Below, piece by piece: positions 4,758-60,482 of a DNA stretch of 64,000 nt. Position 1 is the first letter of the stretch. Each line of letters opens with the position of its first letter. The notes below the pieces were generated by a model that ran no database searches, had not been told where the DNA came from, and saw only the letters and a program-made list of their open reading frames with translations. The stretch comes from a virus (Duplodnaviria > Caudoviricetes): the IMG/VR virus record IMGVR_UViG_2885972705_000001, positions 7,679 through 71,678 of that record, one strand, 5' to 3'. Made by a program: the position numbers and the translations under genes.

Positions 4758-5095
4758 TATCGAAACCTCATAACAAGAAGTCTTTGCGGGCTCAGTCCGA
4801 TAGGACCCGTTGAGGTTGCAGGATTCCCAAAGTAAATAGTTACACCACCAGAAGAAACTCGCGGAGTGTATTGGATTGCATAGTTACTTTGCGCGGTAGT
4901 GTCGTACGCCGCGATAGGAATACAAACAGCAGAATGAGTTGATGGATCAATTCCGGGAATAGCGATATATCGAGTTCTCCCTGGCGCAGGAATGCCGGAT
5001 CGGACTATCTCCGAATAGACAATCCGCACAGTGAAGGACGTTTCATCCAGCTCAAGGAGGCCAGTCGGCCCCCATGTCCGATTTCCAGAGATCAT
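4757..5095 (-). CDS. Tail-tip associated protein
   Basis: Translationally coupled to the J stop. Confidence 0.6.
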   Translation of the reverse strand: MISGNRTWGPTGLLELDETSFTVRIVYSEIVRSGIPAPGRTRYIAIPGIDPSTHSAVCIPIAAYDTTAQSNYAIQYTPRVSSGGVTIYFGNPATSTGPIGLSPQRLLVMRFR

Positions 5096-8000
5096 GCGGA
5101 AAGATCCCCCCACTGGTAGCGCTTAACGTCATTTTCATCGTAAACCTTGCCGCCACGGTTATTGATGGTCTGGCGACCACCGCCACCAGTCGCGCTATTC
5201 AACTCGAACTCACCGGTGACGAAGTTGATCATCAGCCCCATCCTCCCGGGAACGTAGTTTTCCGACTGGATGCTCTGGGTCAGCTTTGCCACACCGATTG
5301 AAGCGTCCTGAATGAACGCCGAGTTCATGAACACCTGCCCGCCCTGCACCACAAACGGCGTGGTGATCGCCCCGCCAGCAATGGTGTTCACCACCGCAAA
5401 CCGATCAGCACTCACCACGAACTGGCTTTGCAGTAAGCCGTCGGCGTTCTGCTCGATGCCCAGGCCGATCCCCGCTGCCACGTACTGGCCGTTGGCGTTG
5501 ACCTGCATCTTCACCGCCCACATTGTGGACAGCTTGCCGTCGATGTCTGCTGTAGCCCTGGCCGTGACCTGGATCGACGCCTTGTTCTTCCAGTCGTTGA
5601 TGGCACTGGCCAGGTCGCCCTCATCCGAGCCGTCACGATCACCGCCGGCGATGGCTTCAATCGTGGTGGACTGGGATGCGATCGACTTGTTGGTATCAGC
5701 AAGCGACTGGGTGACGGTCTGGACGGCTGCCGAGTTGGTATCGACGTTGCTCTTAAGCTGGTCGATACGCTCAGTAGTTGCCAGCTTGTCGGTGGCCACC
5801 ACCTGCTCCAGCGTGGTCAGTGCAGCCTTGTTGGCCCCCACCGCCGCATCCAGCGACGTAGTGCGCTCAACCATTGCCCGGTTGTCGGAAGCCTGTACCT
5901 TCACCTGCTGCGCAAACTTGGCGGTGGCGTCCCAACTTTTCACCGCGTCGGCAAGGTCACCCTCCCCGTCATTCTCGCGCCAGCTTGCCTGGAGCGATTG
6001 CAGCGCCGAGGCGTTCGCTGTGACCTTGCCGTCCACGGTTTCGATTGAAGTCTTGTTCTGCTGGATCTGGAGTGCCATGGCCTGGGTTGTTTGGGCAATG
6101 GTGCCCATGTTGAACCAGTACTCGACAGCGGGCGGCGGGGTATCCACCGGTACCGCCTTGAGTGCCTGCCACAGGTTCTGCCCCGTGCGAACAATCTGCC
6201 CGGTGGTGTAGGTCTTGGTCGGAACGTAGACCAGGGCGTCCGTTACGTGGTCGATCAGGTCTTCCAGTTCCTGCTTGGCTTGCTCCAAACGATCATTGAC
6301 CGAGCCCGGACCGGAGCCGGAGATCAGCTCGATCTCCTCAAGCAGCTCCTTGCCCAATTCGGATTCGCCAATCTGGCCGGCGATCATCTCCAGAATCGGC
6401 GCAGCATTCGCGCTGGCCTGCCCCGGTACACCATTGACCACCGGATAGAACGGGCCGACGTTGCCGGTGCGGTCCACCAGGCGCGCCCAGAAGAAGAACT
6501 GCGCACCGGCCTTGAGGGCCTGCATGCTGTGGTTCGCCTGGGGGTAGGCCAAGTCGGCAAGCTTGGTGGCCACTGACAGGTCATTGGCTGGGCCGTACCA
6601 CAGCTCGGTCCGCTGGGTGTCCTCGGCACCGGGCGGGAAAGCCCACCGGATGCCGATGCCGAACAATTCGCTGGTGGTGGTCAGGGACGCAACCGCAGGC
6701 GGCAGGCCCACCTTCCCTTCCAGATTGGTCAGGTTGGAGCTCTTCCAGATCGACGAAATTTCAAAGGCGCTCACCGAGCGAACCCGGGCCAGATAGGCGC
6801 CAGAGTAGATGCCGGTGAGGTCCACGCTCGTCGAACCAGTGCGCTGCAGCTTGATCCAGTTGCCGCTGTCCTTGCGCCACTCCACGTCATAGGCGATCGC
6901 ACCCGAAACAGCAGGCCACGAGATGTTCATGGTGCTGATTGCCAGGCCTTGGTCCACGGAGTAGTTCGAGGTGATGCTAACGCTCGCCGGCGCCGGAACC
7001 ACGGTGATGGGTACAACACTGATCGGACGATCCTCCAGGCGCGCGCCGGTATCGATGTGATCGAACTTGCTCGGGTCGTACTGCACGGCCGAGATCTCGA
7101 ACACGCCGGCTTCCGGCCGGGCCACGCTCACCACGCGGTAAAGCGGGATGGCCAGGTCGTCTGCATCCAGCGCCCACACCAGTTCGCGCTCAGGCGGGAC
7201 GGAGTAGGCCAGGGTTACGGTGACTTGCCGGCCGCTGACCAGTTGCACGGTGCGGCCCTCGCACTTGCCATCGGGCAAGTTGAGGATTAGCCGGTCGCCA
7301 GGCTTGGCCTGGGTGTCGCGGTCCAGGGTGATGACCTTGCCATTCACCGCCGAGATGCGTCCGCCCACAGAACGGCCGGCCAGCAGTTCGTCAGCAATAG
7401 GGATCACGTAGCCGGGCAGCGGGATACGCCCGTCGAGGCCGACCTTGAAAGTGACGGCGCGGTCTTTGGAGTTCGTGAGCAGCGCCCACTTACCGCGGCG
7501 CTGCGCCTCCGACTCACGGGTGCAGCCGATGGCGCTGATCTCCAGCGGGTTGTCGCCGTAGCGCCGCTGGAGCTTCGAATCCGTGACCGCCGTGACATCG
7601 GTGTCGTAGTTGTTGGCCGGGTTGTCGTAGCTGATCAATGCCCGGGTGTATCGCGTGCGCTCCGAGGCGCTGGAGTAGGTGAACTTGCCGTCGATCACGT
7701 TCGCCCTGGTATAGGCGAAGTCGAAGTCGGTGGCGCGCGGCATGTCCGCCAGCGTGAAGACCTGGCCCTGCGCCCAGTAGGTCATGCCACGGTAGATCGC
7801 CGAGATATCGCGCAGCAGCGACCAAGCGTCAGCCTTGCTCTGCAGGTTCAAGTTGCAGAGGAAGCGCGGTTCCATGCCGCCTTTTCCGTCCGGCACCAAT
7901 TGGTCGCAGTATTGGGAAATACGATACAACTCCCAAATATCAACCATCCACGGCTTGATGCGACGGCCCAAGCCGAAGCGGTCGGCGGTGGTGATGTCGT

Positions 8001-8862
8001 AAGTCATCCAGACAGCATTGTCAGTCCATGCCTGCTTGAATGTACCGTCCCATATCCCGGTGTATGAACGCGACGCGGGGTCGTAGTTACTCGGTACCTG
8101 CATCTTCTTCAGCTTGGTCTCGACCGTGACGGCCGGGATGCTGCGGAACTGCTCGGCTGAAAATTCGATGTAGAGCAGCGCTGTATTTGGATAGCGAACC
8201 TTCGCATCGATCACCTCGGTGAAGCCGGCGATCTGCATGGTGTCGGAGATTTTGTTGTTGTTCTGGTTGATCGTCAGTCGCGTGATCCTCATCAGCCAGC
8301 CAGTGGTCGCCTTTGGAAGATCAATGCGGCGTGTTCGCTCGTACAGGCTGGTGGTCTTGCCGTCGACAGCCTCGCTCAGCACCTGCTGGTAGGTCCCACC
8401 ATCGGTGGCCAGCTCAACCTTGTATTCAATGCGGTACCCATTGACGTTGCCGCTAGAGTCCACCGACTGAAGCGCCGGCCACGCGAAACGCACTCGTACT
8501 GCGGAGAGCTGGGTGTTGCTAATGGCTCGGACCCACGGCGTACCGCTGCGCAGCTCGGTATTGATCGTTGTCTCGTTCTCGATCGATGGAATGCCCTGGA
8601 TATAGCTCTGATCCACGGCACCGGTGCGCCACTCCCACTTCACGTTCGGGAAGTTCATGTTGCCTTGAGGGTCTTGCAGGGGCGTGTTGTCGAGATAGAT
8701 GTCTTTGGCAGTTGGCGTGCCCTCGAACTCACCCTCGCCCACGGCAATGAGCATTTTTGCGATAGCAACAGAGCGCAGACTGTCCGGGGCCTCAGTCGGC
8801 GTTTTTGGTTTACCTTCGCCGCCTTTGGCGCCGTGTATATCGATGTTTTGTGCTGCGCCCAT
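5092..8862 (-). CDS. Tail tip / host-specificity protein J
   Basis: 1256 aa; GEGEFEG, YPNTAL, YCDQLVPDGKGG, FN3-like repeats, SQFVVSADRFAV C-terminal domain. Confidence 0.95.
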   Translation of the reverse strand: MGAAQNIDIHGAKGGEGKPKTPTEAPDSLRSVAIAKMLIAVGEGEFEGTPTAKDIYLDNTPLQDPQGNMNFPNVKWEWRTGAVDQSYIQGIPSIENETTINTELRSGTPWVRAISNTQLSAVRVRFAWPALQSVDSSGNVNGYRIEYKVELATDGGTYQQVLSEAVDGKTTSLYERTRRIDLPKATTGWLMRITRLTINQNNNKISDTMQIAGFTEVIDAKVRYPNTALLYIEFSAEQFRSIPAVTVETKLKKMQVPSNYDPASRSYTGIWDGTFKQAWTDNAVWMTYDITTADRFGLGRRIKPWMVDIWELYRISQYCDQLVPDGKGGMEPRFLCNLNLQSKADAWSLLRDISAIYRGMTYWAQGQVFTLADMPRATDFDFAYTRANVIDGKFTYSSASERTRYTRALISYDNPANNYDTDVTAVTDSKLQRRYGDNPLEISAIGCTRESEAQRRGKWALLTNSKDRAVTFKVGLDGRIPLPGYVIPIADELLAGRSVGGRISAVNGKVITLDRDTQAKPGDRLILNLPDGKCEGRTVQLVSGRQVTVTLAYSVPPERELVWALDADDLAIPLYRVVSVARPEAGVFEISAVQYDPSKFDHIDTGARLEDRPISVVPITVVPAPASVSITSNYSVDQGLAISTMNISWPAVSGAIAYDVEWRKDSGNWIKLQRTGSTSVDLTGIYSGAYLARVRSVSAFEISSIWKSSNLTNLEGKVGLPPAVASLTTTSELFGIGIRWAFPPGAEDTQRTELWYGPANDLSVATKLADLAYPQANHSMQALKAGAQFFFWARLVDRTGNVGPFYPVVNGVPGQASANAAPILEMIAGQIGESELGKELLEEIELISGSGPGSVNDRLEQAKQELEDLIDHVTDALVYVPTKTYTTGQIVRTGQNLWQALKAVPVDTPPPAVEYWFNMGTIAQTTQAMALQIQQNKTSIETVDGKVTANASALQSLQASWRENDGEGDLADAVKSWDATAKFAQQVKVQASDNRAMVERTTSLDAAVGANKAALTTLEQVVATDKLATTERIDQLKSNVDTNSAAVQTVTQSLADTNKSIASQSTTIEAIAGGDRDGSDEGDLASAINDWKNKASIQVTARATADIDGKLSTMWAVKMQVNANGQYVAAGIGLGIEQNADGLLQSQFVVSADRFAVVNTIAGGAITTPFVVQGGQVFMNSAFIQDASIGVAKLTQSIQSENYVPGRMGLMINFVTGEFELNSATGGGGRQTINNRGGKVYDENDVKRYQWGDLSA

Positions 8863-8921: not shown

Positions 8922-9521
8922 CTACATCTGGTCTTCGGCGTATATCGCGGCGCTAATAATCGCGCCGCCGACCCTGCGCTTGCCGTAGCAGAGCGGGACC
9001 GGGTTGCCGGATGCAGTTGTGTTCTGCGCCGAGCCAAATGCATATCCAGGCTGGTTTTCGGGCGCAGCGCTCATCTTGAGGCCTGCCGCCTGCGGACTAA
9101 GCATTTGGATTACGCCCCCAGCAGCACTACCGATACCGCCCGCTATGAGGGCTGCGCCTGTAGTTGTTGTCGACCCGAACGCAAAAAAACCTACCACAAT
9201 CAATATGGCACCCAAAATGGTCTGCATCAGGCCTGCGCGCTTTCGGCCCGTAATTACCGGCGCTATACGGATTTCTCCGGAACCGCCAAATCCTAATTCT
9301 TTTTCTTCAAGATTTTTTGACCCTCGAAACACGGCAAACTCAATGCCGCGAGACTTGGCGTTCGACAGGAACCGCTCGAAGCCAGGGATCTGTACGCATA
9401 GTGCCTTGATAGCCTCGGCTGGGGACTTAACTGACAACCTGAAAGATCTTCCAAATTGCCTAAGCTGCCCATAAAGCAAGATGGTAGTCATCGGCTGATA
9501 ATTAATTGCGAGTGCTGACAT
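8922..9521 (-). CDS. Tail assembly protein I
   Basis: SPAEAIKALC, IRIAPVITG, GNPVPLCYG...GGAIISA. Confidence 0.92.
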   Translation of the reverse strand: MSALAINYQPMTTILLYGQLRQFGRSFRLSVKSPAEAIKALCVQIPGFERFLSNAKSRGIEFAVFRGSKNLEEKELGFGGSGEIRIAPVITGRKRAGLMQTILGAILIVVGFFAFGSTTTTGAALIAGGIGSAAGGVIQMLSPQAAGLKMSAAPENQPGYAFGSAQNTTASGNPVPLCYGKRRVGGAIISAAIYAEDQM

Positions 9522-9568
9522 GGTTTTCTCCAGGCGAAAAAAAACCCGCTGTAGCGGGCTTAATGGGA

Positions 9569-9970
9569 TCAATAAGCGGTAGCTGAAATATCTGGACCGC
9601 CGGGCGACATGGATATTCTTCTTCTCAAAACTTCTCCGCTTTTTATTTCGACATCGCGCTCAACCATCATCCCTCCCCCGCAAGCTGCGCTTGGCTTCGC
9701 GCCAAGCACTACTCGGCCGGCCTTAACACCAAACCTAGCCACCTCTCCCGAGGAGAATTCGGCAGCAAGCTCCCCATTGATATAGAAACGGTAATTGCAT
9801 CCAGATCCAAACATCCCGCCATCTCGGGTAACAATGAGTTGAGCATCGGACTTTGTAGCGAAGGCATAAAGCCGAGAGCTTGGCACCGGATCGGCCTTGT
9901 CGGCAGATATAGGCGAACTAGAGCAGCCGACCAAGCTCAAAATAAAAAAGAATCCTACGAACAGTTTCAT
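9569..9970 (-). CDS. Phage lipoprotein moron
   Basis: Signal peptide with LVGC lipobox. Confidence 0.8.
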   Translation of the reverse strand: MKLFVGFFFILSLVGCSSSPISADKADPVPSSRLYAFATKSDAQLIVTRDGGMFGSGCNYRFYINGELAAEFSSGEVARFGVKAGRVVLGAKPSAACGGGMMVERDVEIKSGEVLRRRISMSPGGPDISATAY

Positions 9971-10025
9971 GTCGCTCCCTCGTTGAGAAATGGCGAGACT
10001 TTATCACCAAGCAGAGAGCAACACG

Positions 10026-10044
10026 AAAGCCCGCAATGCGGGCT
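10026..10044 (-). terminator. Intrinsic terminator closing the RAMP/array transcript
   Basis: AGCCCGCA-T-TGCGGGCT hairpin followed by TTCGTGTT on the minus strand. Confidence 0.7.
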
Positions 10045-10104
10045 ATATCAATCGAAAACTTCTAACACTGCAATGCCTCCTCCAAGAAGAGACATTACGC
10101 TGTT

Positions 10105-10172
10105 ATCAGCCCATACCAAATCAAACCACACCCCGCCGGACCTAGCCGCGACTTGCCGGACCAGAACCTGCC
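10105..10172 (-). repeat. GGY-NN pentamer tract A
   Basis: GGC-AG GUU-CU GGU-CC GGC-AA GUC-GC GGC-UA GGU-CC GGC-GG GGU-GU GGU-UU GAU-UU GGU-AU GGG-CU GAU. Confidence 0.92.
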
Positions 10173-10224
10173 AGCGGCTTCTGCCACCGCAATGCCGACT
10201 GATTCCAATCGGCATTACGCTGTT

Positions 10225-10287
10225 GTCAGCCCTCACCTCGACATGCCCGACCTAACCAGGCCTCGCCCAACCTTGTCTCGCCACGCC
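10225..10287 (-). repeat. GGY-NN pentamer tract B
   Basis: GGC-GU GGC-GA GAC-AA GGU-UG GGC-GA GGC-CU GGU-UA GGU-CG GGC-AU GUC-GA GGU-GA GGG-CU GAC. Confidence 0.92.
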
Positions 10288-10338
10288 ACATGATGCGTTC
10301 GCACCGCAATGCCCTCTCATAGAAAGGACATTACTCTG

Positions 10339-10800
10339 CTATTGACCAAGAGCCTTTCGGGTCATGCCCTGGAGCGCGGAAAACTTTGCTACAGCGTCAA
10401 GGTTTGCACGTCGCTGATCATCGGTAAGCTCCGTTATCCTCAGATTCCTCAGCTTTTCTCCACTCCCGCGAAACGCCTTCCGGACATTCCGGCCCAGCTC
10501 ACTTACCGCAACTTCTGTCTGCTCATGAGGCGGCACCCAGCGGTAACCACGGCCGCGCACAGACTGAAGGCAGACCTGATGATGCTTGAGCAAGTCCGAT
10601 TTAAATGCCTCCACGTTCGCAAGCCATTCGAACTGACGCTCACGAAACTTCTCAACGGTCAGCGACTTCGAGTCAGTCATGGAAGGCATTCCGAAACGCG
10701 CCTCCAACCACTCATGCCCGACCAGATCGCCGTATTTGAATTCCTTGAGGAAGTCATCAACAGCTTGCTTGTAGCTTGGGTGCTTTGTCAGTTCAGACAT
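10339..10800 (-). CDS. Accessory protein of the RAMP/array locus, winged-helix-like (153 aa)
   Basis: Start MSELTKHP overlaps the RAMP gene end; LQSVRGRGYRW wing-like motif; helical C-terminus. Confidence 0.7.
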   Translation of the reverse strand: MSELTKHPSYKQAVDDFLKEFKYGDLVGHEWLEARFGMPSMTDSKSLTVEKFRERQFEWLANVEAFKSDLLKHHQVCLQSVRGRGYRWVPPHEQTEVAVSELGRNVRKAFRGSGEKLRNLRITELTDDQRRANLDAVAKFSALQGMTRKALGQ

Positions 10801-11368
10801 ATGCCACCTCGAAACGACCGAAGCGCGGCCGGTATTCACAGACGCCAATCAACAGTCCTGAGTCGGTGATCGCCTTTTTTGCTTCCTCTATGTTGAGTAC
10901 GTCAGCGTTGATCGCGACTTCCAGCTCGACGCCCCATTCAAGAAAGATTGGCCGGTAACGCATGATCTTCGCCTGCCCAACCTTAACCCCGCGACAATCA
11001 ACGAATCGCTGATCCTCCCAAAGAGAATCGGGAGTTGTCGGCCCAGAGAACTCCAGCTTTGCCTTGTCAGTCATTACGACCGCTCCGCGCTTCCATTGCG
11101 TGCCCAGCTTCTGAAGCTTCGCGCCAGCCAGGAACGTCGCATCGAAGTTAGCGCCGGGTACAAAGAATCCGAGCTTTTCATCGTGGTAAGCGCCGGCGAT
11201 AAATTCAGAGCGAGCGATGGCAAGATGATCGTCGTCCGTCTTCTTGCGCTTTCCGGTCAATTCCTTATGAGCCTTTGTTGCGGGATTCAAAGGGTTGGCC
11301 AGCTTGTCGCTGTGCATCATCAGCGGAGACGTGCCGGTAATTTTTAGCGTGACAAGTTCCATGCTCAT
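10793..11368 (-). CDS. Minimal RAMP/Cas7-like RNA-binding protein (Vipr-like)
   Basis: LKITGTSPLMMH (RAMP first strand), FFVPGANFDATF (like IPGSSLKG), C-terminal glycine loop GLLIGVCEYRPRFGRFEV. Confidence 0.8.
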   Translation of the reverse strand: MSMELVTLKITGTSPLMMHSDKLANPLNPATKAHKELTGKRKKTDDDHLAIARSEFIAGAYHDEKLGFFVPGANFDATFLAGAKLQKLGTQWKRGAVVMTDKAKLEFSGPTTPDSLWEDQRFVDCRGVKVGQAKIMRYRPIFLEWGVELEVAINADVLNIEEAKKAITDSGLLIGVCEYRPRFGRFEVAYV

Positions 11369-12228
11369 GCTGCGTCCCTCCGAGCAGCCTGGAAAAGAAA
11401 TCGGCAGCGCAGATTTTCAGTAGCAAGCGCCACAAACTCAAACATTTCCGCTGTGGAGACTGGCATATCCCTGTCCACAAGCATCGACTGCATGAACTGC
11501 TGCCGGGTCAAAACGAACGCACCCATTGGCACGGGCGTGACCTGCCGATTGCCGTGATGGTCGGCGCTGACGAGATATCGCTCACACTCTCCAAGTTTGT
11601 CGGGGATATCGAAGGACTTGCCCTGCCCCTTCGGAATGAACTCACCTTCCAGGACGGCGTAGGCCGCGATGAAGTTGCACGCCGACTCGAACTGGCTTGC
11701 AGGTATCAGCTCAAGGCGCGGCACGTTGAAACGCGTGTGCACTGCTGAATAAATACGCGCGGAAGCACTGCGCTGAATGGATGCTGGAAGATGTGCCACT
11801 TTGTGGCGCGCCAAGCCTTTCAGGGCATTCGTCTCGGTCATGTCGACCAGGTCATCCATCAGCGTCTTCATTCTATTGCTGGAGTCTTGGTAGCTGCCCT
11901 GCTTGCGAATCGCCGGAAGGACTTCAGCAGTCACCCACTTCTTGAAGCGCTTGGCTTCAGCCTTGCGGCTGCGCAGGATGGCCGAGTAAAGGCCGGATTC
12001 GTTTATGACCAGCATTTCTTGGTCGCCGCCAGGGGTACGCACAATCTGCGTACCCTTTTCGTCTTCGTCCAAGTTTCGAGTCATGTCACCAGCAATACGG
12101 TACTCCAGGGCGGACGACACATCTGCCGCCACGAACCACGGCTGATCATCAATCAGCAGGGTCCGCACCTGTTGCTTGCCGAACTTGAAGGGGATGACAT
12201 TGGATGTGGCTGTGCTAATATCGCTCAT
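11365..12228 (-). CDS. BRO-N domain antirepressor (Ant-like)
   Basis: PWFVAADV, INESGLYSAILRSRKAEAKRFKKWVTAEVLPAIRKQG. Confidence 0.9.
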   Translation of the reverse strand: MSDISTATSNVIPFKFGKQQVRTLLIDDQPWFVAADVSSALEYRIAGDMTRNLDEDEKGTQIVRTPGGDQEMLVINESGLYSAILRSRKAEAKRFKKWVTAEVLPAIRKQGSYQDSSNRMKTLMDDLVDMTETNALKGLARHKVAHLPASIQRSASARIYSAVHTRFNVPRLELIPASQFESACNFIAAYAVLEGEFIPKGQGKSFDIPDKLGECERYLVSADHHGNRQVTPVPMGAFVLTRQQFMQSMLVDRDMPVSTAEMFEFVALATENLRCRFLFQAARRDAA

Positions 12229-12295
12229 GACGTTTTTCCTAGTAGATTGACGTTCTGCTTCACAGGCCTCAAGCGTTGGCGCGCTTGGGGCTTTT

Positions 12296-12448
12296 TCATG
12301 CCTGTTCATTTTTCGCTTTTCCCTTGGCTTGCTGAATAATCTCAACCAGTTGCGCGTTCATCGAGCGGTTCTGCTCGCGCGCCTGCTGTTTCAACCATTC
12401 CATCAGCTCACCAGGGAATCTAACCTGCGTTCTTGCTAGATCGCTCAT
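12296..12448 (-). CDS. Arc-family ribbon-helix-helix repressor (50 aa)
   Basis: Manual translation MSDLARTQVRFPGELMEWLKQQAREQNRSMNAQLVEIIQQAKG; AAGGAGG RBS. Confidence 0.85.
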   Translation of the reverse strand: MSDLARTQVRFPGELMEWLKQQAREQNRSMNAQLVEIIQQAKGKAKNEQA

Positions 12449-12458
12449 AACCCCTCCT

Positions 12459-12511
12459 TAGTGACACGCAGTCACTATACAGCCGATATTTCACAGTGAC
12501 AAGATAGTGAC
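12459..12511. promoter_or_regulatory. Arc/Mnt-type operator in the divergent promoter region
   Basis: Palindrome TAGTGAC-N5-GTCACTA (12459-12477) plus AGTGAC half-sites at 12495 and 12506. Confidence 0.65.
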
Positions 12512-12901
12512 ATGGAAGAAATTTATAGATCTCAATTCCGCCTCCCCTACTCTCTTTATGAGCAGTTGAAGGCTTCCGCTGACAAGAATCGCCGCTCAGT
12601 GAACGCGGAGCTAATCGCGCGCCTGGAGCAAAGTTTTGAGGTTCAGCAACAAGATGCTGAGGATTCCCCTCGATTTAAGATCGATGGAGACGCCTTTAAT
12701 CTTGGGAAATATGAGCCTGGGGCTGACGCAGTGAAATTTGCAGGCGGTCCGGCAGCCGAAAAGGAAAACTCCTTTATGGCGAGTTTGCTAGAACTGATTA
12801 ATGAGTATCGCCCCGCAGAGCTCAAAACGTTGCCGCCCGATAACGCAAAACCCAAACCTAATACGGGGCCAGAGCCCCGCAAGCGCTACCCGAAGAAGTG
12901 A
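12512..12901 (+). CDS. Arc/Mnt-family repressor
   Basis: QFRLPYSLYEQLKASADKNRRSVNAELIARLEQSF. Confidence 0.85.
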   Translation: MEEIYRSQFRLPYSLYEQLKASADKNRRSVNAELIARLEQSFEVQQQDAEDSPRFKIDGDAFNLGKYEPGADAVKFAGGPAAEKENSFMASLLELINEYRPAELKTLPPDNAKPKPNTGPEPRKRYPKK

Positions 12902-12922
12902 TTGGTCCGACAAGGAACGTCA

Positions 12923-13390
12923 ATGTCACCCAAAGAGCCCATACCAGAACCCGACAATTCCAGTGCCTTTTCGTCAGTCACGGTCTGCTTCGTGCCCAGG
13001 GCATTTGCCGCCAACACCCTAGCGAACCTCGGCCTGGTAGGCACCCTCTGCAAATACGGCGACAAAGAGTTTCGACGAATCGAAAAGCTGAAGTGCGACC
13101 TGTACTTCCCAGCCGGGACGTTTGTCGCTCTTGATCAGAATGGAAACATCGACAGCATCCATACCGGGTCTGACATCGGGCAGCTTGACCTGGCTTTCAA
13201 CGACTACTTGAATTTCCTCATGGATGTTCGGCGGATCTACGAAGGGCCGGGCACCTACAACAAAAAACTTGAGGCCGTCGAGGCCATGACAACCGGCATG
13301 GGGCGCCAAGGGCATTCCCATGGCTACTTCATAGCCAAGCATGGCGGCGCGGGCCCGCTTCTCGACAAGTGTGTCCAGCGAAAGCGCTAG
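12923..13390 (+). CDS. Hypothetical moron protein
   Basis: ORF with AAGGA RBS. Confidence 0.6.
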   Translation: MSPKEPIPEPDNSSAFSSVTVCFVPRAFAANTLANLGLVGTLCKYGDKEFRRIEKLKCDLYFPAGTFVALDQNGNIDSIHTGSDIGQLDLAFNDYLNFLMDVRRIYEGPGTYNKKLEAVEAMTTGMGRQGHSHGYFIAKHGGAGPLLDKCVQRKR

Positions 13391-13432
13391 TATTCCCTCC
13401 CGCCTGAATCCACCATCGATAAGGAAATTTGT

Positions 13433-13645
13433 ATGCGGAAATTAAGGTCTATAGAAACCGTCGGACTTAGCGTTCAAGAGATCCTCAGCGAGTTCAATGA
13501 GCGCGCGGGAGAGTTTGGCGTGACAGAGGAAAACCTCGTCTCCGTGAACGTCACTCCCCCGAGTAACCCCATCAAAATACTTGATGGCGATAAAACTAAA
13601 GACGCGCGCGTCCAAGTGACTATCATTTACTGGAGCGATCGATAG
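13433..13645 (+). CDS. Hypothetical protein
   Basis: 70 aa with TAAGGA RBS. Confidence 0.6.
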   Translation: MRKLRSIETVGLSVQEILSEFNERAGEFGVTEENLVSVNVTPPSNPIKILDGDKTKDARVQVTIIYWSDR

Positions 13646-13708
13646 TCTCCACTCACTGACCCAAGCCCGGCCCGCCGGGCCTCGAACGCCACGCCAGGAG
13701 GCTCGGCC

Positions 13709-14104
13709 ATGCTTAAACTAAAAAGAATCAGTGCCAAACAAGAGATCAGGAGTGCCGTACTTCAGGAGCGCTACTACAAAGGCTCAAGCCCAAAAACCCA
13801 TGATTATATTGCGCTGTCGAACGATGCTGAGGCGGGGCTCCTTATCTACGAGGACTGGGGAACTCCCGTAGGTTTTATCTTCGAAATTTTCGTAGTCAGT
13901 GATTTCAGAAAACGCGGTATCGGGAACTGGATTCTGTCTCAAGCAGAGGTTGTTGCTGCTGAGCTTGGCAACACAAGAATCAGACTCGACGCAAGAACAC
14001 TTGATCCAGAGCAGATGAGTCATAACGACTTAGCCACTTGGTACCAGAGCAAAGGTTATGTCTGGAATAACTCTAAAGTTGGCACGCTAGAGAAGGCGCT
14101 GTAA
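13709..14104 (+). CDS. GNAT-family acetyltransferase
   Basis: IFVVSDFRKRGIGNWIL acetyl-CoA motif; WYQSKGY. Confidence 0.85.
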   Translation: MLKLKRISAKQEIRSAVLQERYYKGSSPKTHDYIALSNDAEAGLLIYEDWGTPVGFIFEIFVVSDFRKRGIGNWILSQAEVVAAELGNTRIRLDARTLDPEQMSHNDLATWYQSKGYVWNNSKVGTLEKAL

Positions 14105-14167
14105 CGTCAAAGCCCTTTTCATATCCGTCTCTGCTTTCCCTGCCTACCCATCCCATAGGATCGTTGC

Positions 14168-14431
14168 GTGTCAGAACCCAACCTCACTTTGAAATGCCTA
14201 GGCCGCACCAAACGAGGCGATGTTCTGGTTGGGCGCTACCATTTGGAAGTGACCGACATCCGAAGTGGCAAGACTGCGACTATCTCGGTCGAACCCAGGC
14301 ACTCGGCCTCGGCGCGGAGCATGAAAAGGATCCTGCTAGAGCGGTGCATATTCTACAGGGCAACGCGCGCGGAGCACGACCAGGTGCTACTTGAGATTCT
14401 TGATCCGCTGACTGAAGCAATCCAAAAATAA
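14168..14431 (+). CDS. Hypothetical protein
   Basis: 87-aa ORF, GTG start with AGGA RBS. Confidence 0.5.
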   Translation: MSEPNLTLKCLGRTKRGDVLVGRYHLEVTDIRSGKTATISVEPRHSASARSMKRILLERCIFYRATRAEHDQVLLEILDPLTEAIQK

Positions 14432-14486
14432 TCCTGCCCTAATAAGTTTTCACACTGGCTTACACCTACGCTGCACATACCCAAGG

Positions 14487-15026
14487 ATGACAATGAAGAG
14501 AGAAATGTTCGCGAAGGACGTCGGTAAAAAGATCACGCAATTTCACCAAGCCTTCGACCGCGATGACGCCCTTCTAACGGCTGTGCTTCGAGGTCACATG
14601 ATGATTGAAGAACGACTCCATGATGTGATCTCTGCGGGCGTTGCTCGTTATGCTCGCCCACACGACCGAAACGACATATTCACTTTTGGCACAGCAACAG
14701 AGCTTTGCAAATCAATCGCGGGACTGGCCGCCTCACCCGATCTTTGGGATGCTGTTAAATCACTAAACAACCTGCGGAACGCCTTGGGACATCGGAATGA
14801 ACCGGCGCGACTAGGTTCGCTCTTGCTGAAATTCTTCAAGCAGAGCGAGCCGGTTGCTCTCAGCTTTTTTGAGGTGAGCGCATCCTATGATCCAGAGGGC
14901 GAAAACGAAAGCACGCACGCCATTGCTGTTCGTAACCGAATAACTGCGATGTGGACCGTTCTAGGGATTCTCGCTGACGACTTGGCCCGCGACCTGGATA
15001 GCGCGCTTGAAACTCGGCGGCATTGA
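14487..15026 (+). CDS. HEPN-like (MtlR-type) helical protein
   Basis: LRGHMMIEERL helix and RNALGH (RxxxxH) motif. Confidence 0.6.
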   Translation: MTMKREMFAKDVGKKITQFHQAFDRDDALLTAVLRGHMMIEERLHDVISAGVARYARPHDRNDIFTFGTATELCKSIAGLAASPDLWDAVKSLNNLRNALGHRNEPARLGSLLLKFFKQSEPVALSFFEVSASYDPEGENESTHAIAVRNRITAMWTVLGILADDLARDLDSALETRRH

Positions 15027-15098
15027 CAAGGCATACCTACCAACCAGACTCGAAAACCGACCATGCGCCGGACTGAGACCTTACTACCGGAGAAGGGA

Positions 15099-15425
15099 AT
15101 GACTCCCGCGAAAAAAGCGATACAAATCACTAATGCACGCGTCCTTGTGAAGGCTGACTGCGATGCTGCAGTTGACACTGAAGCAAGCACAGAGGCTCTA
15201 CGAAACGCAATTTCTGCCTCCTTGCGAGGATCGATCAGAGGCCTTTGGGCATCGTTATTTGCTTTTCAGCTCTTCCCTGAAGGAGAGGCTGCTAACCCTG
15301 ACCATTTGGATCTTGTCGAACAACTGGAAGAACTTATCGCGAACGATGTAATGTCATTGCCCGCGAGTGAGCGCGACAGCTGCTTCAAGAATCTTGATGA
15401 GCTCGTGGCTATGCTTCAAATCTGA
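15099..15425 (+). CDS. Hypothetical protein, paralog of 24682-25005
   Basis: Shared MTP.KKA, VDTEAS, ASLRG, WAS.FA..LFP motifs. Confidence 0.7.
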   Translation: MTPAKKAIQITNARVLVKADCDAAVDTEASTEALRNAISASLRGSIRGLWASLFAFQLFPEGEAANPDHLDLVEQLEELIANDVMSLPASERDSCFKNLDELVAMLQI

Positions 15426-15659
15426 TCTCTACGTTTCGTATCACGATGACGCCGCATGAGACCCGCTCAGCCAGGCGTAAATGGGTGAACTGCTAAACGG
15501 TTGAGTCTTGGTCATTCCCGCCTGTACGAATCCTCAGTAACCCCCGACCACCGGCCAGTAGTAGTCTCCTGCCACACGCAAGGATTTCCCAGCCCTACGC
15601 CTGCAAGCCCAAGGACTGGGGTAGCGCCAATATCGGCGCGTTTATTGAAGGAGCAAGAC

Positions 15660-15914
15660 ATGCGCCAAGGGCAAACCATTTTCCCCTACGTTTTAGTTAC
15701 TGAAAGCGCGGCAGTTTCGACAAAAGCTCAGGATTTCGCCGTAGACGGAATGCAGAGCGGGTTCGGGCTTTTTACTTTTAGCTCAGAGAGCCAGCCTGAC
15801 GAGCTCTTTACTGCTCTGAGCGAGGCGGGAACGGACTTTGCTTTAATTCGGGTATACGACAAAGCGATTCGGGGAGACGGTAACTTTATGAGGGTTTTCG
15901 GCCATATCAAATAG
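15660..15914 (+). CDS. Hypothetical protein
   Basis: MRQGQTIFPY with AAGGAG RBS. Confidence 0.55.
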   Translation: MRQGQTIFPYVLVTESAAVSTKAQDFAVDGMQSGFGLFTFSSESQPDELFTALSEAGTDFALIRVYDKAIRGDGNFMRVFGHIK

Positions 15915-16135: not shown

Positions 16136-16900
16136 TCATGTTGGTTGTTTTGCGTCTTTGTGCCTGAGAATCAGGCGTGTTCGGTCGTTCCAGGGGCCGC
16201 CGTAGACAATGATCTCGGACGGCCTGCCATATAGGTGATGAAGCAGGAACGGGCCAGGCCCGAACGTGCATGACTCTTCACCAGCTAACGCAGGATCAGT
16301 ACCCAGGTAAATCCCCGCGTGATTCGGGTGAACCGTTCGGCCGACATGCATGACTATCAGGTCACCGCGCTGCGGCTGGTCCACCTGCACAAAGCCGGCG
16401 GCCTCGTAATGCTGTTCGTACAGGCTTGCGTTCTCCGCGCTCTCCCACCAGCCATCAGTGCGCTGGAAGGTTTCAAACTCCAGTCCCCACTCCCGCTGAT
16501 ACCAGTCAGCGCAAACCTGCCAGCAGTCCCAGGCTCCGTGAACGAACGGGCGCTTGAGCAGCGGCGTGCTGCCGGTTGGCGTGATCGTGCGCAGATCGCC
16601 CTCCGGCCAGCTCAGGATATGCCAGGGCAACGCCGTGGCCTCACACATCGCCAGGTCGTGCGATGACGGCCGGCTGGTGGCGTCTGGGTGCGAATGAACA
16701 ATACCGATCACCTCGCCCAGGTCTTCCGCCGCGGCGTAGTCCTCAGGATCTAGCCGAAACTCTTCGTTTGGCTCCGTGGCGATGTTCCGGCACGGGAAGT
16801 ACTTCTGCGACCGCCCGATTGCCAACAGCAGCCCGCAGCACTCTTTCGGGTACTGGGCGGCGGCGTGCGCCTGAATGGCCGCAATAATGTGCTTGCGCAT
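16136..16900 (-). CDS. Tail assembly protein K (JAB + NlpC/P60)
   Basis: YPKECCG, IVHSHPD, DCWQVC, NHAGIYLG, LLHHLYGR. Confidence 0.93.
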   Translation of the reverse strand: MRKHIIAAIQAHAAAQYPKECCGLLLAIGRSQKYFPCRNIATEPNEEFRLDPEDYAAAEDLGEVIGIVHSHPDATSRPSSHDLAMCEATALPWHILSWPEGDLRTITPTGSTPLLKRPFVHGAWDCWQVCADWYQREWGLEFETFQRTDGWWESAENASLYEQHYEAAGFVQVDQPQRGDLIVMHVGRTVHPNHAGIYLGTDPALAGEESCTFGPGPFLLHHLYGRPSEIIVYGGPWNDRTRLILRHKDAKQPT

Positions 16901-16902
16901 GA

Positions 16903-17655
16903 TCAGCTCCGGGCAATGAGTGAAACGGCGGGGAATCCACCGAAGGCCAATTCGTTGTTCTCGCCAAACCGCAGCTTGCAGGACGACAGACAGCCCTTAC
17001 ACTGATCCTTCGACGGATCGTCCGTTGGGTTGTCCTCGTCGTCGAACATCACCGCGCCGGTGTAACCGCAGTCCGGCCCCCGGTAGCCATTGGTCATGGC
17101 CCAGTGGCAGAACGTGGTCATCTGCCGGCCCGGCAGCCCGTGGTTATCGATCTCGCCCGGGGAAGACAGCTCCCACACCACCGCCTCACCGTCCTCGCTG
17201 GTCTTCTGGTCGATGAACCAGATTTCCAGCGCTTCCTGGGTCGGATTCGCCGTTGGGTTCCCCTCCGGGAAGTTCGCCGCATCCAGGTACTGGACCAGGG
17301 TCTCTCGAACCGTCAGCTTGAACTTGAGCATGTCCTCGAACGCCAGGCACAACGCCGTGACGCGCCCGTTGATGTTGCCGGCGGCGAAGGTCGGGCGTGA
17401 GGCGGTGCCGTCGCTGCTGGAGGAAATGCCCTCGATCTGCACCGGCCAGGCAGCGTATTCCTCGCCCTGCCACCAAATCGACTTGGCCGGCAGGTCCTCT
17501 TCCGAGTGTTCGTAGGCCATCAGCTCTTCCGGCGTGTGCGGAATCGCGTGCCCGTGGAAGCGCAGGTAATCGGCGCCGTACTCGGTCCCGTCGATTTCAA
17601 ACAGGCGAATCTCGCCGCCGGGCTCCAGTTTCTGGATGTCCGTGATCAGTGCCAT
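16903..17655 (-). CDS. Minor tail protein L
   Basis: C-terminal Cys cluster (CHW...CGY...CKGCLSSCKLRF), FGGFP. Confidence 0.93.
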   Translation of the reverse strand: MALITDIQKLEPGGEIRLFEIDGTEYGADYLRFHGHAIPHTPEELMAYEHSEEDLPAKSIWWQGEEYAAWPVQIEGISSSSDGTASRPTFAAGNINGRVTALCLAFEDMLKFKLTVRETLVQYLDAANFPEGNPTANPTQEALEIWFIDQKTSEDGEAVVWELSSPGEIDNHGLPGRQMTTFCHWAMTNGYRGPDCGYTGAVMFDDEDNPTDDPSKDQCKGCLSSCKLRFGENNELAFGGFPAVSLIARS

Positions 17656-17666
17656 GGGCGGTTATC

Positions 17667-18005
17667 TCAGGGGTGAAAGGTTTGCTGGAATGTGGCGGTG
17701 ATGGCGTAGACCTGGCCACCGCGATGCACGGGCTTGTAGCCGTTGCACTTGTAGAGGCCAAGCTCCCCGAGGGGCGGCGTCCAGAGAAACGCCTTTGCCC
17801 CCTTGTGCCGATCAAGGAACGCCTTGATCAACATCACCCGGGGCTTGCCGCCTGTGAAGACGAGCGGCCAGGACTGGGACTGATTGTTGAGGCCGTCCTC
17901 GACCGACTGCTCGTAACCGTCCCCGAACTGCTTGGTGCGAACGCGCTGGGCAACATCCCCTTCCGCGCCCTTTTCCGTCTCCCAGATGAATCGTTCGATG
18001 GCCAT
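17667..18005 (-). CDS. Minor tail protein M
   Basis: FGDGYEQ...DGLN, FLDRHKG.KAFLWTPP. Confidence 0.92.
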   Translation of the reverse strand: MAIERFIWETEKGAEGDVAQRVRTKQFGDGYEQSVEDGLNNQSQSWPLVFTGGKPRVMLIKAFLDRHKGAKAFLWTPPLGELGLYKCNGYKPVHRGGQVYAITATFQQTFHP

Positions 18006-21000
18006 CAGCGCCCCTTGATTGCTTTGTTGATGACGCCGCCCTGGCGCATGTCCTTCGTCCGTAGTTCCTGATACCTCTGCTCGACGAAGGTCGCCAACTC
18101 TTTGCCGAACAGGTCGTAGCCGGGATCATCGGATGAGGACGACGTGTTGCCGTCTCCGTCGATATGCACCTCGACATTGATCTGCGTGCCGCCACCGCCA
18201 CCGCCGCCCATCGCCATAACGCCAAGCTTGCCGCTGGAGGTTCGCGTGAGTGGCATGATCGCCTCTTCGCCCGCCTCACCCATGATGCCGGTCTTGCCGT
18301 TGCCCATACCGAACGCCTTGGGCTTACTGACGACAGAGTTGGTGAAGGCACCGCCGTCGGCGAACATCTGCACGCCATTGGCCCAGGCACCACCGTCCGC
18401 CTGAAAGTAGGCGCTGGAATAGCCAGCCTGCGATGCGCCGAGGTTTGACGACGTGGCACCGGCAGACCCGGCCGCCATGCCATTGCCACCTCCGGCCGCG
18501 CTGCCACCGAAGTAACTCGCAGCCGCGCCCACCAGACTGCCCAGCAATGCCGAGCTGGCCTGGCGCGTAGCAATGCGCGCCATATCCGCCAAGATCGATT
18601 TGGTGAAGTCAGAAAACTTCGCCTTCCCCGTGAGCACGAAATTGGAAACCGAGTCCTCCATGGTGCCGAAGGCGTTGCCAAACAGGCTTTTTGTCTGACC
18701 GGCGATGTTCTGCGCCGAGTCCAGGTAGTTTTCCCAGGCCGCCGTAGCGCCCTTCGTCCAGTCTCCTTGGGCGGCCTCCACATCCGCGTAGTTCTGCCGA
18801 ATCTGGTCGGTAGCCTTCTTGTTCGCGTCGGCGAGCGCCTGCGATTTGCGCGTGAACTCTTCATCCGACATGTTGCGCGACGGATCGGAGCGCTGATTTT
18901 CCAGTTCCAGCGACTGCTGAGCAAACCGGTCTTGCTGGCTGTTCAGTTGCCCGTTGAGCGCGTTCTGGCGATCACCCTGGCCGACGCCCAGCACGGCGCG
19001 CTGCCCGGCCAACTCCAAGGCTCGCTGTTGCTGCCCCAGTGCCTGTACGTACGAGCTGATCGCCCGCTCCTGCTTGGCAAGTCGCCCGACCTCGTTGGTC
19101 GCCAACACCTCAAGCTGGCTATCGGCATCCTTCTGCGCCTTCACCATCCCTGCGCGCGCGTCGGCGATCTTCTGGTCTAGCTGGATGCTTTGCGCGGCTG
19201 ACGTGGTTTTCTTGCCCTTGGCGGCCTCCAGCGCAGAGATCTCGGACTCGTACGCGGCCGTTACCTGGTCATGTTCGTTGCCGATCAGCGCCTGGCGACG
19301 CACCAGGTAGTCGGCCTCGGAGATGAGGCCGGCCCTCTGCGCCGCGTCCAATTCCTTCTGGTAGTTTTTGTAATCGGCTGCGATGGCTGCCAGGTTGTTC
19401 TTGGCGTCGTTGAAGCCGGTCAGGTCAACCTGACTGCCTGCCGTTTTCGGGTCTTTGTTCTTGGTCTCAAGCCCCTTCAGTAGCGTGTCGTAAGCACCAC
19501 CAGAGAACTTGGCGCCGTCGAAACTGACACCATCAAGCAATGGTGACTTCTGCCCGGTTTTCTCGGCGTTTTCGTAAAGGGCGCGGAACTGATCGTTGAG
19601 TTTCTTCAGCCCAGCCTGACGTTTGGCCAGAGGGTTGACGTTATCGAGCTGAGCATCCAGCGCCCGCTGAGCGTCAATGGCCTTCTGATTGGCGTCAGTG
19701 TTTTCACCGGTGGCGATTGCCAGATTTGAACTGGCCGCCTGCCTGGCTTTCAGACCTGCAAGTTTCTTTTCCAGAGCCTCGGTCGAGTCGTCATGCTCGC
19801 CGGTGCCCAGGCCCAGCGCAGTGTTGAGTGAGCTGAGCCCGTTGGAGATTGCGCCAGCTACACCACCACCCTTCCGGGTATCCAGCACCCGCTGAGTGAT
19901 CTCGATCTGCTTGGCCAGGTCGGGGAAGATCTCCGACCGGACTTCGGCGTACGCGCCTTTGATGGCGGTCTTGATGTTGTCCCAGTCGCGCTCAACGTCG
20001 GATAGCGACTCGCGGTAGGTCTTCAAGCGCGTCAGCGCAGCCTGATTCAGATCCTCGCTGAGAACATCCAAAGCGCGCTGGCTTTCGCCTTGGTCATCCA
20101 GCCCCTTGATCACCTGGTACTGCTCAAGAGTGAGCAATCCATACTGGCTGCTGATCTTTCCGGCTGCCTCCGTCGCGGTGTCGCCGGCGGTGGCAAAGGA
20201 CTTAGCCAACTCGCCCGCGCCCTGCCCAGTGACCTCGCTGACCGCCGCGGCAGCTTCGGCCAGATTGCGCATCTGCGTTCCGCTGGTGGCTGCGCCAGAC
20301 GCCAACGACACAACCGCCTCCCGCGCGCCGGTCAAGTTCCCGGTAACGCGGCCGGCACCGTCAGCCATGTCCTTCAGGCTCGCAATGGTCTGCCCTGCAC
20401 CGTTCGTGCCGCCATTGATTGCAGCGTTGAACTCGCGCGCCTGCTTCATCGCGTCGAAGTAGGCGTAGCCAAGCGATCCAATAACAGCGACCAGCAGGCC
20501 GGCCGGGATCAGCATCCCCGCAAGGCTCTTCGCCGACTCACCGGCGCCGGCACCCAGTTGTGCAATGGCCCGCGCCCCGCTGCCCAGATCGCCCGCCTGA
20601 ATGGCGTTGACGAGCTGCATCACGTTTTCTTGAGCCTGGCGCGTACCCAGTTTGAGCTTGTCGAACGCGCCAGCAGTCTCAGTCAGGCCAGACCGATCCT
20701 TTCCTATCTTCGCCAGCGCCTCGTTGTAACGCTCTGCGTCGATCTGACCGGATTTATGCAGGTCGTTGAGCGCCTTCTCCTGGGCTTCCAACTTCGCCAG
20801 CTTGGCGGTGACCGGATCAATCCCGTTGACCGTGCGTTTCAGCGCCTCAATCTGACGATTTTCCGCCTCAATCAGTTTCTGTTTCTGGGCCAGTTCCTTC
20901 GCTTCTGCCTTCTCGATCTTGTCGTAGGCCTTGCCCAGTTGGTCCTGGTACTTCGCTTGCTCCTCGATCGTGACCAGGCCACCCTTGCGAGCGCGCTCCA

Positions 21001-60170: not shown

Positions 60171-60482
60171 GTGAAACGGATTTACCTCAGCGAACCCATG
60201 ACCGGCCTGCCCGGCCTCAACTTTGCCGCCTTCCACGCTATGACCACCAACCTGCGCGCCGGCGGCCACACCGTCACCAACCCCGCCGAGATCAACCCCG
60301 ACGGCGGCAACTGGAACGACTGCATGCGCCGCGACATCGTCGCCCTGATGGAGTGCAACACCGTGGCCACCCTGCCCGGCTGGGAGCACTCAAAGGGCGC
60401 ACGCCTGGAAGTCCTGATTGCCGAACGCCTCGGCATGACGGTTGTGAATGCCCAAGATCTGGTAACGGAGAACGCATCGTGA
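60171..60482 (+). CDS. DUF4406-like protein
   Basis: RIYLS.PMTGLPGLNF.AF, NPAE, LPGWEHSKGARLE. Confidence 0.85.
   Translation: MKRIYLSEPMTGLPGLNFAAFHAMTTNLRAGGHTVTNPAEINPDGGNWNDCMRRDIVALMECNTVATLPGWEHSKGARLEVLIAERLGMTVVNAQDLVTENAS

Follow-up and report, generated by a model that had tools for sequence, protein, structure and literature searches.

A VIPR locus in a Pseudomonas prophage with guide RNAs that appear aimed at tail-tip genes of rival related phages

A stretch of 64,000 nucleotides of the virus record IMGVR_UViG_2885972705_000001 (Duplodnaviria; Caudoviricetes), positions 7,679 to 71,678 and hereafter called the window, carries a lambda-like Pseudomonas prophage, and among its tail genes lies a short operon that ends in a non-coding repeat array. 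Judged by its sequence, this locus is a genuine Viral Interference Programmable Repeat (VIPR) system, that is, a viral RNA-guided DNA silencer resembling CRISPR (clustered regularly interspaced short palindromic repeats), and its two guides seem directed against genes I and J of the tail tip in rival related phages. The assignment of targets to I and J, which we infer from sequence matches, is new in this analysis. The joint reading, a type II-like VIPR in a lambda-like temperate Pseudomonas prophage that silences tail genes I and J of rivals, is in our judgement very probably correct. The locus is a canonical member of an already published family and itself adds no new system type; it is a clean, well-anchored VIPR example in a culturable host genus, with an isolated phage relative, Medea1.

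VIPR has been described in three bioRxiv preprints of 2026 (10.64898/2026.04.26.720920, 10.64898/2026.04.26.720927, 10.64898/2026.10.15.759431). The system is defined by a minimal repeat-associated mysterious protein (RAMP) called Vipr, a vap gene, and guide RNAs (vrRNAs) of about 100 nt that consist of 9-16 YNNGG repeats and a structured tail; it occurs mostly in phages and prophages, and recognition is by the NN dinucleotides, which are matched to double-stranded DNA with one target base passed over in each unit (10.64898/2026.04.26.720920). A preliminary description of the window, made from its letters alone, had likened the locus to VIPR-type systems, and this was correct: the locus matches the published definition, and its protein is a homolog of the solved Vipr of Escherichia phage SUSP1. 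The vipr gene (10793..11368, minus strand) encodes a minimal, Cas7-like RAMP of 191 aa, which aligns over its full length (residues 3-189 against 1-188) with PDB entry 36pp chain D, "SUSP1 Vipr protein" (E = 6.9e-46). It belongs to phrog_4652 (E = 2.3e-72), and no Pfam family was found for it in a Pfam scan. In tblastn searches a Vipr relative was present in 136 phage records, the closest being those of Pseudomonas phage Medea1 (81% identity), LESphi2 (46%) and SUSP1 (42%); the P. juntendi Vipr is 48% identical.

The residues with which SUSP1 Vipr holds its guide also have counterparts here. In the structure preprint, G1 is contacted by H17 and D177, G2 by R138 and W178, and Y3 by R179, while K33 contacts the target backbone (10.64898/2026.04.26.720927). 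Window residues H19, K35, R139, E178, Y179 and R180 align with SUSP1 H17, K33, R138, D177, W178 and R179, so that four of the six GGY- or target-contacting residues are identical and two are conservatively changed. Two of the motifs that the preliminary description had picked out as RAMP hallmarks thereby coincide with published contacts, since ITGTSPLMMH contains H19 and CEYRPRFGRF contains E178-Y179-R180. The pyrimidine-pocket residues E71, M72 and C173 of SUSP1 are not kept in the window protein, which has A73, N74 and I174. For the same pocket the structure preprint also lists T175, and the aligned GenBank SUSP1 protein has V at position 175, probably a difference of numbering or construct. 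An AlphaFold2 model of the window Vipr, built from 37 homologs, has a predicted local distance difference test score (pLDDT) of 94.9, and the best matches of this predicted fold in a Foldseek search of the PDB were all RAMPs (Csm3, type VII Cas7 and Cmr; E = 3.4e-5 to about 1e-3, template modelling score 0.4-0.54), with just 8-14% identity to the Csm3 chains. Both the full-length homology to SUSP1 Vipr and this Cas7/Csm3 fold match support the earlier view of the 191-aa protein as a RAMP.

The architecture read from the letters alone, namely a two-gene unit (191 aa and 153 aa) followed by a non-coding array with three hairpin repeats at a 119/117-nt period, two tracts in strict 5-nt register that join a constant triplet, mostly GGY, to a variable dinucleotide (NN), and a terminator, is present on the minus strand. 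Directly after the vap stop codon stands a leader hairpin (10306..10334), delineated by repeat comparison and folding, which is of the type of the second stem-loop (SL2) of the vrRNA tails and has no tract before it. It is followed by the vrRNA1 guide tract (10230..10289), whose 12 NN-GGY units read GT GT GA AA TG GA CT TA CG AT GA GA at their dinucleotides, and by the vrRNA1 tail (10173..10232), comprising SL1 (GCUG-ACAA-CAGC), SL2 (a 30-nt hairpin, with covariation) and a short SL3. The vrRNA2 guide tract (10110..10174) has 13 units with the dinucleotides CT AG CT CC AA GC TA CC GG GT TT TT AT, and its tail (10070..10112), assigned by folding and alignment, consists of SL1 and SL2 with no SL3. 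An intrinsic-terminator-like hairpin at 10028..10044, with seven pairs, six of them G-C, and then a T-rich tail, closes the array; all of these elements lie on the minus strand. From one start to the next, the three related hairpin repeats lie 117 and 119 nt apart (236 nt in total).

GGY fills nine of the 12 units in tract 1 (the others are GAC, GTC and a terminal GGG) and nine of the 13 in tract 2 (with GTT, GTC, GAT and a terminal GGG). Both lengths exceed the minimum of four tandem units for a type II VIPR tract, which lies on the vipr strand in a flanking intergenic region. Counted in 12-unit sliding windows, both tracts reach 9/12 NNGGY, against at most 6 on either strand in the rest of the 64 kb, and in 50 shuffles of the window the maximum was 4 (2 shuffles), 5 (41) or 6 (7). 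Two other stretches at 6/12, 60240-60309 and 56119-56183 (minus strand), were set aside as chance level, since 7 of the 50 shuffles reach 6. The fold of the 321-nt array has a z score of -6.96, and none of 100 shuffles folds equally well. The array is letter-identical in Pseudomonas sp. KBW05, and in P. costantinii LMG 22119 Y is changed at two places and NN at one, and GAT stands for one GGT. A leader-type hairpin is also present in Medea1 and in loci L007 and L008, and absent from L006 and L009-L011. The leader may serve to process or stabilise the first vrRNA, or it may be left over from a lost guide.

Conservation was followed across 48 loci, 45 from species-representative genomes and three from phages, and a tract was scored where at least 7 of 10 units within about 1.5 kb of vipr read NNGGY. 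Such tracts lie on the vipr strand in 44/48 loci and on the opposite strand in 0/48. The loci without a tract are L016, in which vipr lies at a contig edge, and L036, L038 and L039; these four may use variant repeat codes, which are mentioned in the VIPR preprint (10.64898/2026.04.26.720920), or have their array elsewhere. The Vipr homologs of L036, L038 and L039 come from metagenome-assembled genomes of Clostridia, Zixibacteria and Phycisphaerae. Among 336 units from 30 vrRNAs of the Medea1-like clade, not counting the near-identical L005, entropy is 1.97 and 1.97 bits at the two NN positions and 0.31, 1.10 and 1.16 bits at the triplet positions, and GGY occupies 246 units. Homologous loci thus keep the triplet and vary the NN, as the earlier account had expected.

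The tails were aligned in 25 copies, leaving out the terminal vrRNAs, which carry GCCG/CGGC in SL1. In this alignment SL1 is near-invariant (GCUG-NNAA-CAGC), and SL2 has compensatory changes at 13 of its 13 pairs, values that 0/500 shuffles reach; 96% of cells are paired in SL2, compared with 36-58% when the partners are slid. SL3, which precedes the next tract, shows covariation on visual inspection only (GGC/GCC versus GAUGC/GCAUC). The compensatory changes at all 13 SL2 pairs indicate selection on the RNA fold. One may argue that the repeats instead work as DNA elements, either iterons or sites bound by a phage protein, or as terminators or attenuators of the ant operon in which they lie, and that the small protein is unrelated to them. 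The hairpins are indeed G+C-rich and placed at the 3' end of the operon, the last one is terminator-like, and no RNA family matches the region: an Rfam scan of the array returned no family, its sole row being RF02278 at 9536-9609 (E = 0.97, far under the gathering score). However, the one-sided placement of tracts relative to vipr, the compensatory changes in SL2, the lack of U-tracts at the internal hairpins, and the full-length homology of Vipr to a protein solved with such an RNA, as the structure preprint describes it, make this explanation highly improbable.

Just as little credence can be given to a degenerate or miniature CRISPR-Cas remnant, in which a lone Cas7 would stand beside a decayed repeat-spacer array. 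The Cas7/Csm3-like fold would fit such an origin, and three repeats of about 40 nt around two stretches of about 80 nt look superficially array-like, but the 5-nt GGY periodicity of these "spacers" is absent from any CRISPR spacer, and the arrangement of two genes plus tracts is shared by phages and prophages across many phyla. In addition, the protein is far closer to SUSP1 Vipr (42% identity) than to Csm3 chains (8-14%), and 0/43 larger open reading frames (ORFs) of the window match a CRISPR-associated PHROG family. The pentamer-periodic stretches between the repeats and the lack of CRISPR-associated PHROG matches also uphold the preliminary statement that this is not a standard CRISPR locus.

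The second protein of the VIPR unit is also that of the published family. The vap1-type accessory gene (10339..10800, minus strand; 153 aa) starts with ATG at 10800, stops at 10339-10341 and overlaps vipr by 8 nt. Its product shares 24% identity (E = 6e-12) with that of the gene downstream of SUSP1 vipr (vap1) and 58% with the Medea1 counterpart, falls in phrog_5926 (E = 1.2e-48), and has a Pfam match below threshold only; a vap homolog lies immediately downstream of vipr in 28/48 loci. The Vap model (pLDDT 92) gave only a weak winged-helix likeness in the fold search (best E = 0.06). The vap product is called a "predicted DNA-binding protein" in the VIPR preprint (10.64898/2026.04.26.720920), and the modelled likeness is compatible with DNA binding, no proof of it.

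To find what the two guides might address, each was turned into an NNx pattern and scored at every offset on both strands against shuffled-unit controls, which is the Methods procedure of 10.64898/2026.10.15.759431. In 408 kb of DNA, vrRNA1 matches the J gene of Medea1 at 21/24 NN positions, with units 2-10 perfect, whereas its 30 shuffled-unit controls reach at most 18/24; the chance of at least 21/24 in 408 kb is about 2e-4 by an analytic estimate. The matched stretch, GTC GAC AAG TGG GAG CTG TAT CGC ATC, codes for VDKWELYRI, and each skipped base falls at a wobble position. The 9-unit core of vrRNA1 occurs exactly in at least 120 viral contigs, and among the matches listed all 120 are in frame in J homologs, which are 44-96% identical to the window J. 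The same core is present in 20/120 Pseudomonas genomes (21 sites), with the wobble bases freely varying, whereas a backwards-pattern control gave 0/120. Scores of vrRNA1 on J genes run from 20/22 to 21/24.

The second guide gave no match above controls in the 408 kb. When units 2-12 were searched with up to 3 mismatches, 15 sites appeared in 9/120 Pseudomonas genomes (control 0), and in 13 of the 15 sites units 3-11 are perfect. The site codes, on the opposite strand, for ENTPGYAFGS, a motif of tail-assembly protein I. The 9-unit core of vrRNA2 is found in at least 120 viral contigs, and 119 of the 120 listed are homologs of the window I; of the 123 listed matches, 122 are located within the aligned I segment and 120 code PENTPGYAFGSA. 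On I genes the best score is 21/24, and scores are typically 20/26 or 19/22. Backwards patterns of the two guides had 1 and 0 matches in the viral collection. The exact 10-unit pattern of vrRNA1 and the exact 11-unit and 9-unit (units 2-10) patterns of vrRNA2 had 0 matches in that collection; the natural targets mismatch at flanking units.

The two predicted targets are also neighbours. In seven Pseudomonas genomes the vrRNA1 and vrRNA2 sites are about 1.1 kb apart, and among the matches listed from viral loci an I site accompanies 16/120 J sites and a J site 46/120 I sites. The 16 J-site loci that were measured have their two sites on opposite strands, at a distance of 1109 to 1467 nt, mostly 1111-1112. 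Moreover, all three guides of locus L006 match within gene I (25/28, 15/16 and 19/20), although the one at 15/16, with a shuffled maximum of 14, is under the criterion of more than 1 above the maximum. Guides of L007, L008 and L010-L015 gave no match above shuffled controls, a result of little weight in a set of DNA that is small and enriched for I and J.

The carrier's own alleles differ from these predicted targets. The J gene of the window has a homologous, mismatched site at 7913..7947 (minus strand) that scores 18/24 overall (75%) and 16/18 in the core, with ATT (Ile) instead of AAx (Lys) and TTG instead of CTx. The own I gene has its homologous site at 9025..9062 (plus strand, which is the guide-sense strand), scoring 15/26 overall (58%) and 14/18 in the core; it codes for PENQPGYAFGS rather than PENTPGYAFGS (Gln for Thr) and has Ser TCG in place of AGC. 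The line used for natural targets in the VIPR preprint is at least 80% NN match under the one-base-skip rule (10.64898/2026.04.26.720920), and no self-target at 80% was found within the 64-kb window. The P. costantinii genome G001, which has a near-identical cassette, gave no match in any of the pattern searches, including that with the full-length guides. The I and J alleles next to the cassette are presumably spared on these sequence differences.

Several observations weigh against working tail-gene targets. The best targets match nine consecutive units only, and the units on either side mismatch; patterns of the full-length guides, with 13 and 14 NN units and as many as 3 mismatches allowed, had 0 matches in 400 Pseudomonas genomes. 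Typical vrRNA2 targets, at 20/26 (77%), are under the published 80% line, and pass it at 19/22 (86%) over units 2-12. The choice of the 9-unit cores followed the first matches, and the later matches are homologous to one another rather than independent trials. The own J gene differs from the targets at just 2 of 18 core positions. Finally, a 19/22 match of vrRNA2 would be expected about 3-4 times by chance in 120 genomes, as estimated, so that the case for this guide rests on its perfect 18/18 run (about 0.06 expected by chance, also an estimate), the reading frame, the gene, and the closeness of about 1.1 kb to the vrRNA1 site.

These points leave room for another explanation, in which the locus is a VIPR and the tail-gene matches are not working targets; the guides may then be decayed, have their targets among elements outside the searched collections, or tune the carrier's own late genes I and J. 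It would account for a match at 9 of 12-13 units with mismatching flanks, for the nearness of the own J site to a target (16/18 in the core, 75% overall), and perhaps for matches in a local DNA test set that was enriched for I and J regions. It would also agree with the guides of the P. fulva clade, whose targets reportedly lie mostly in resident Pseudomonas prophages (48/66) and concentrate on lysis-lysogeny regulators, not tail genes (10.64898/2026.04.26.720920). On the other hand, neighbouring genes of the same rival prophages are matched by two independent guides, each match is in frame and has its skipped base at wobble, backwards controls gave 0 to 1 matches against at least 120, and gene I is also where the three guides of L006 match, one of them only marginally above its shuffled control. 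In addition, neither own site reaches the published 80% line. We consider non-working matches unlikely, while granting them far more weight than the two explanations discussed above, and prefer silencing of the tail genes of rivals.

Two further matches were seen in the opposite direction. The single guide of Medea1 matches the window tape-measure gene at 18636-18673 (21/26, controls at most 19), and one guide of L009 matches the window portal gene at 30052-30077 (16/18, controls at most 14). Both are marginal and not claimed as targets; such matches, as sequence, hint that relatives may target structural genes of this prophage in turn.

By analogy with SUSP1, a mechanism can be proposed for the locus. 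The arc-ant-vipr-vap operon would be transcribed on the minus strand and run on into the non-coding array, which would yield two vrRNAs of about 100 nt, each with an NN-GGY tract and a structured tail. Vipr protomers would polymerise along the tract, one per pentamer, burying GGY and presenting NN. The preliminary description had likewise suggested that one protomer binds each GGY and presents NN for pairing; the protomer per pentamer and the presented NN agree with the SUSP1 structure, in which, as a refinement, two neighbouring protomers share each GGY, according to the preprint (10.64898/2026.04.26.720927). The NN would then pair with double-stranded DNA, skipping every third target base (NNxNNx...), and the bound filament would silence transcription, an effect that Vap1 may enhance. 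In the predicted scheme, vrRNA1 would be aimed at the VDKWELYRI-coding stretch of gene J and vrRNA2, directed to the opposite strand, at the part of gene I that codes for ENTPGYAFGS, both in rival related prophages or phages. The skipped base falls at the codon wobble position, and therefore synonymous drift would give the target no escape.

If tail-gene targeting is true, temperate phages would use VIPR against rivals at the level of virion assembly genes. A gapped code laid on codon positions 1-2 of invariant peptide motifs would defeat synonymous escape, and the distinction of self from non-self would come down to as few as 2-4 guide positions, a useful natural calibration of VIPR specificity. 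One may go further and propose that, in a Medea1-like sub-clade, the cassette in the tail-tip block between K and I targets sibling I and J genes, and that the array and the resistant alleles are inherited as a linked selfish unit. We put this forward tentatively, as a possibility somewhat short of an even chance. In that case, the cassette would shut down virion completion of rivals in mixed infection or polylysogeny, at conserved and wobble-proof sites, and recombinants with the cassette and without the matching I and J alleles would be penalised. The list of VIPR targets (a satellite recombinase, lysis-lysogeny regulators and other VIPRs) would be extended to late structural genes, and the supplementary tables of the preprints may already list such cases.

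The genomic setting is that of a lambda-like prophage. The window contains an integrase (62807-63997), a CI-like repressor, CII, NinB and NinG, the replication genes O and DnaC-like, and the structural genes for terminase, portal, tape measure (18008-21352) and minor tail proteins M, L and K (16139-18005). Tail-assembly gene I lies at 8922-9572 (Pfam Lambda_tail_I) and tip-attachment gene J at 5092-8862, and tail fibre and endolysin genes are present as well. The interval from K to I holds the VIPR operon, a lipoprotein gene and a plus-strand block of 3.4 kb with unknown ORFs, and the layout in Medea1 is the same. Between K and the operon, seven plus-strand ORFs occupy 12902-15911; one encodes a GNAT acetyltransferase (13709-14101, Pfam E = 4.8e-7), and the other six have no Pfam family, one of them having a PHROG family of unknown function only. 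This block looks like a moron island within the tail-tip gene block.

The operon itself runs on the minus strand from a sigma-70-like promoter candidate (12474..12502; TTGTCA, a 17-nt spacer and TATAGT, with 10/12 consensus matches, assigned by consensus only). Its first gene (12296..12448) encodes an Arc-like ribbon-helix-helix regulator of 50 aa (Pfam Arc, E = 4.3e-8, and PHROG Arc-like families), and its second (11365..12345) an anti-repressor Ant with a Bro-N domain and an ORF6C-like part (Bro-N, E = 9.9e-23; phrog_245, anti-repressor Ant, E = 2.9e-60), whose stop codon shares an ATGA with the start of vipr. Upstream of vipr, 8/48 loci (L002, L004-L009 and L012) have an Ant-like gene. Salmonella phage P22 offers a parallel in its immI region (mnt / arc-ant), where an anti-repressor gene follows a small gene for an Arc-type repressor. 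The window likewise has an Arc-type gene and then ant, plus a divergent second Arc-like gene (12512-12901, plus strand), and differs in adding two genes and a guide-RNA array after ant, in the same orientation and through the ATGA overlap; vipr-vap is the distal part of an immI-like unit (11365-12901). If driven by the ant promoter, vipr may be silent in a stable lysogen and fire on infection or induction.

The cassette also recurs in RNA libraries: 12 runs from three studies contain most of the stretch, and contigs of four runs span 9954-11676 with 20 differences in 1723 bases (about 99% identity). None of the four differences within the array is at an NN position of a tract. As a further point on the cautious side, such contigs may stem from carried-over DNA and reveal no ends or strand, and therefore do not establish transcription. 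Uncovered parts of 9000-13000 and a contig break inside the array in one run were given no weight. The contigs are unlike the window before 9954, and the 5' part of ant is diverged and patchy beyond 11676. Since their flanks are unlike the window, the block is present in another genomic setting, and the stretch from the 3' part of ant through vipr, vap and the array seems, from these sequences, to move as a module between phage backgrounds.

Among known systems, the prophage VIPR of P. fulva, also type II, shares with the window locus its host genus, its prophage carrier and its GGY/NN vrRNAs. Its cloned locus is described as "vrRNA1-3, vipr, vap1" with the array upstream, as is also the case in LESphi2 and P. 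juntendi, whereas the array is downstream here and in Medea1; its reported targets are mainly lysis-lysogeny regulators, in a clade defined at >90% identity. In comparison with the Cas7/Csm3 backbone of class 1 effectors, Vipr has the same RNA recognition motif core, glycine-rich loop and thumb, and both kinds of protein polymerise on a guide RNA at a fixed period. However, the VIPR period is 5 nt, with three buried and two presented, instead of 6 nt with one flipped, the VIPR target is double-stranded DNA read in a gapped code, and the window locus is without cas1/2, any other effector subunit or a repeat-spacer array. A further comparison is with the type II VIPR of SUSP1 (Vipr, Vap1 and four vrRNAs; PDB 36pp). 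The Vipr proteins are homologous over their full length, a vap1 homolog stands directly downstream, the NN-GGY vrRNAs end in ..GGU AU GGG and then a structured tail, the array lies downstream of the genes, and the predicted targets are coding DNA with the skipped base at wobble. The tails differ, which counts somewhat against the assignment: those of the window have SL1 (GCYG-NNAA-CRGC), a long SL2 and a short SL3 where SUSP1 has a hairpin-pseudoknot, and a pseudoknot was not looked for here. The window locus is also without an upstream vrRNA, and its genes are coupled to an arc-ant operon. SUSP1 is a lytic, Felixounavirus-like coliphage whose system addresses a satellite recombinase, whereas the carrier here is a temperate, lambda-like prophage and its predicted targets are the tail genes I and J of sibling phages.

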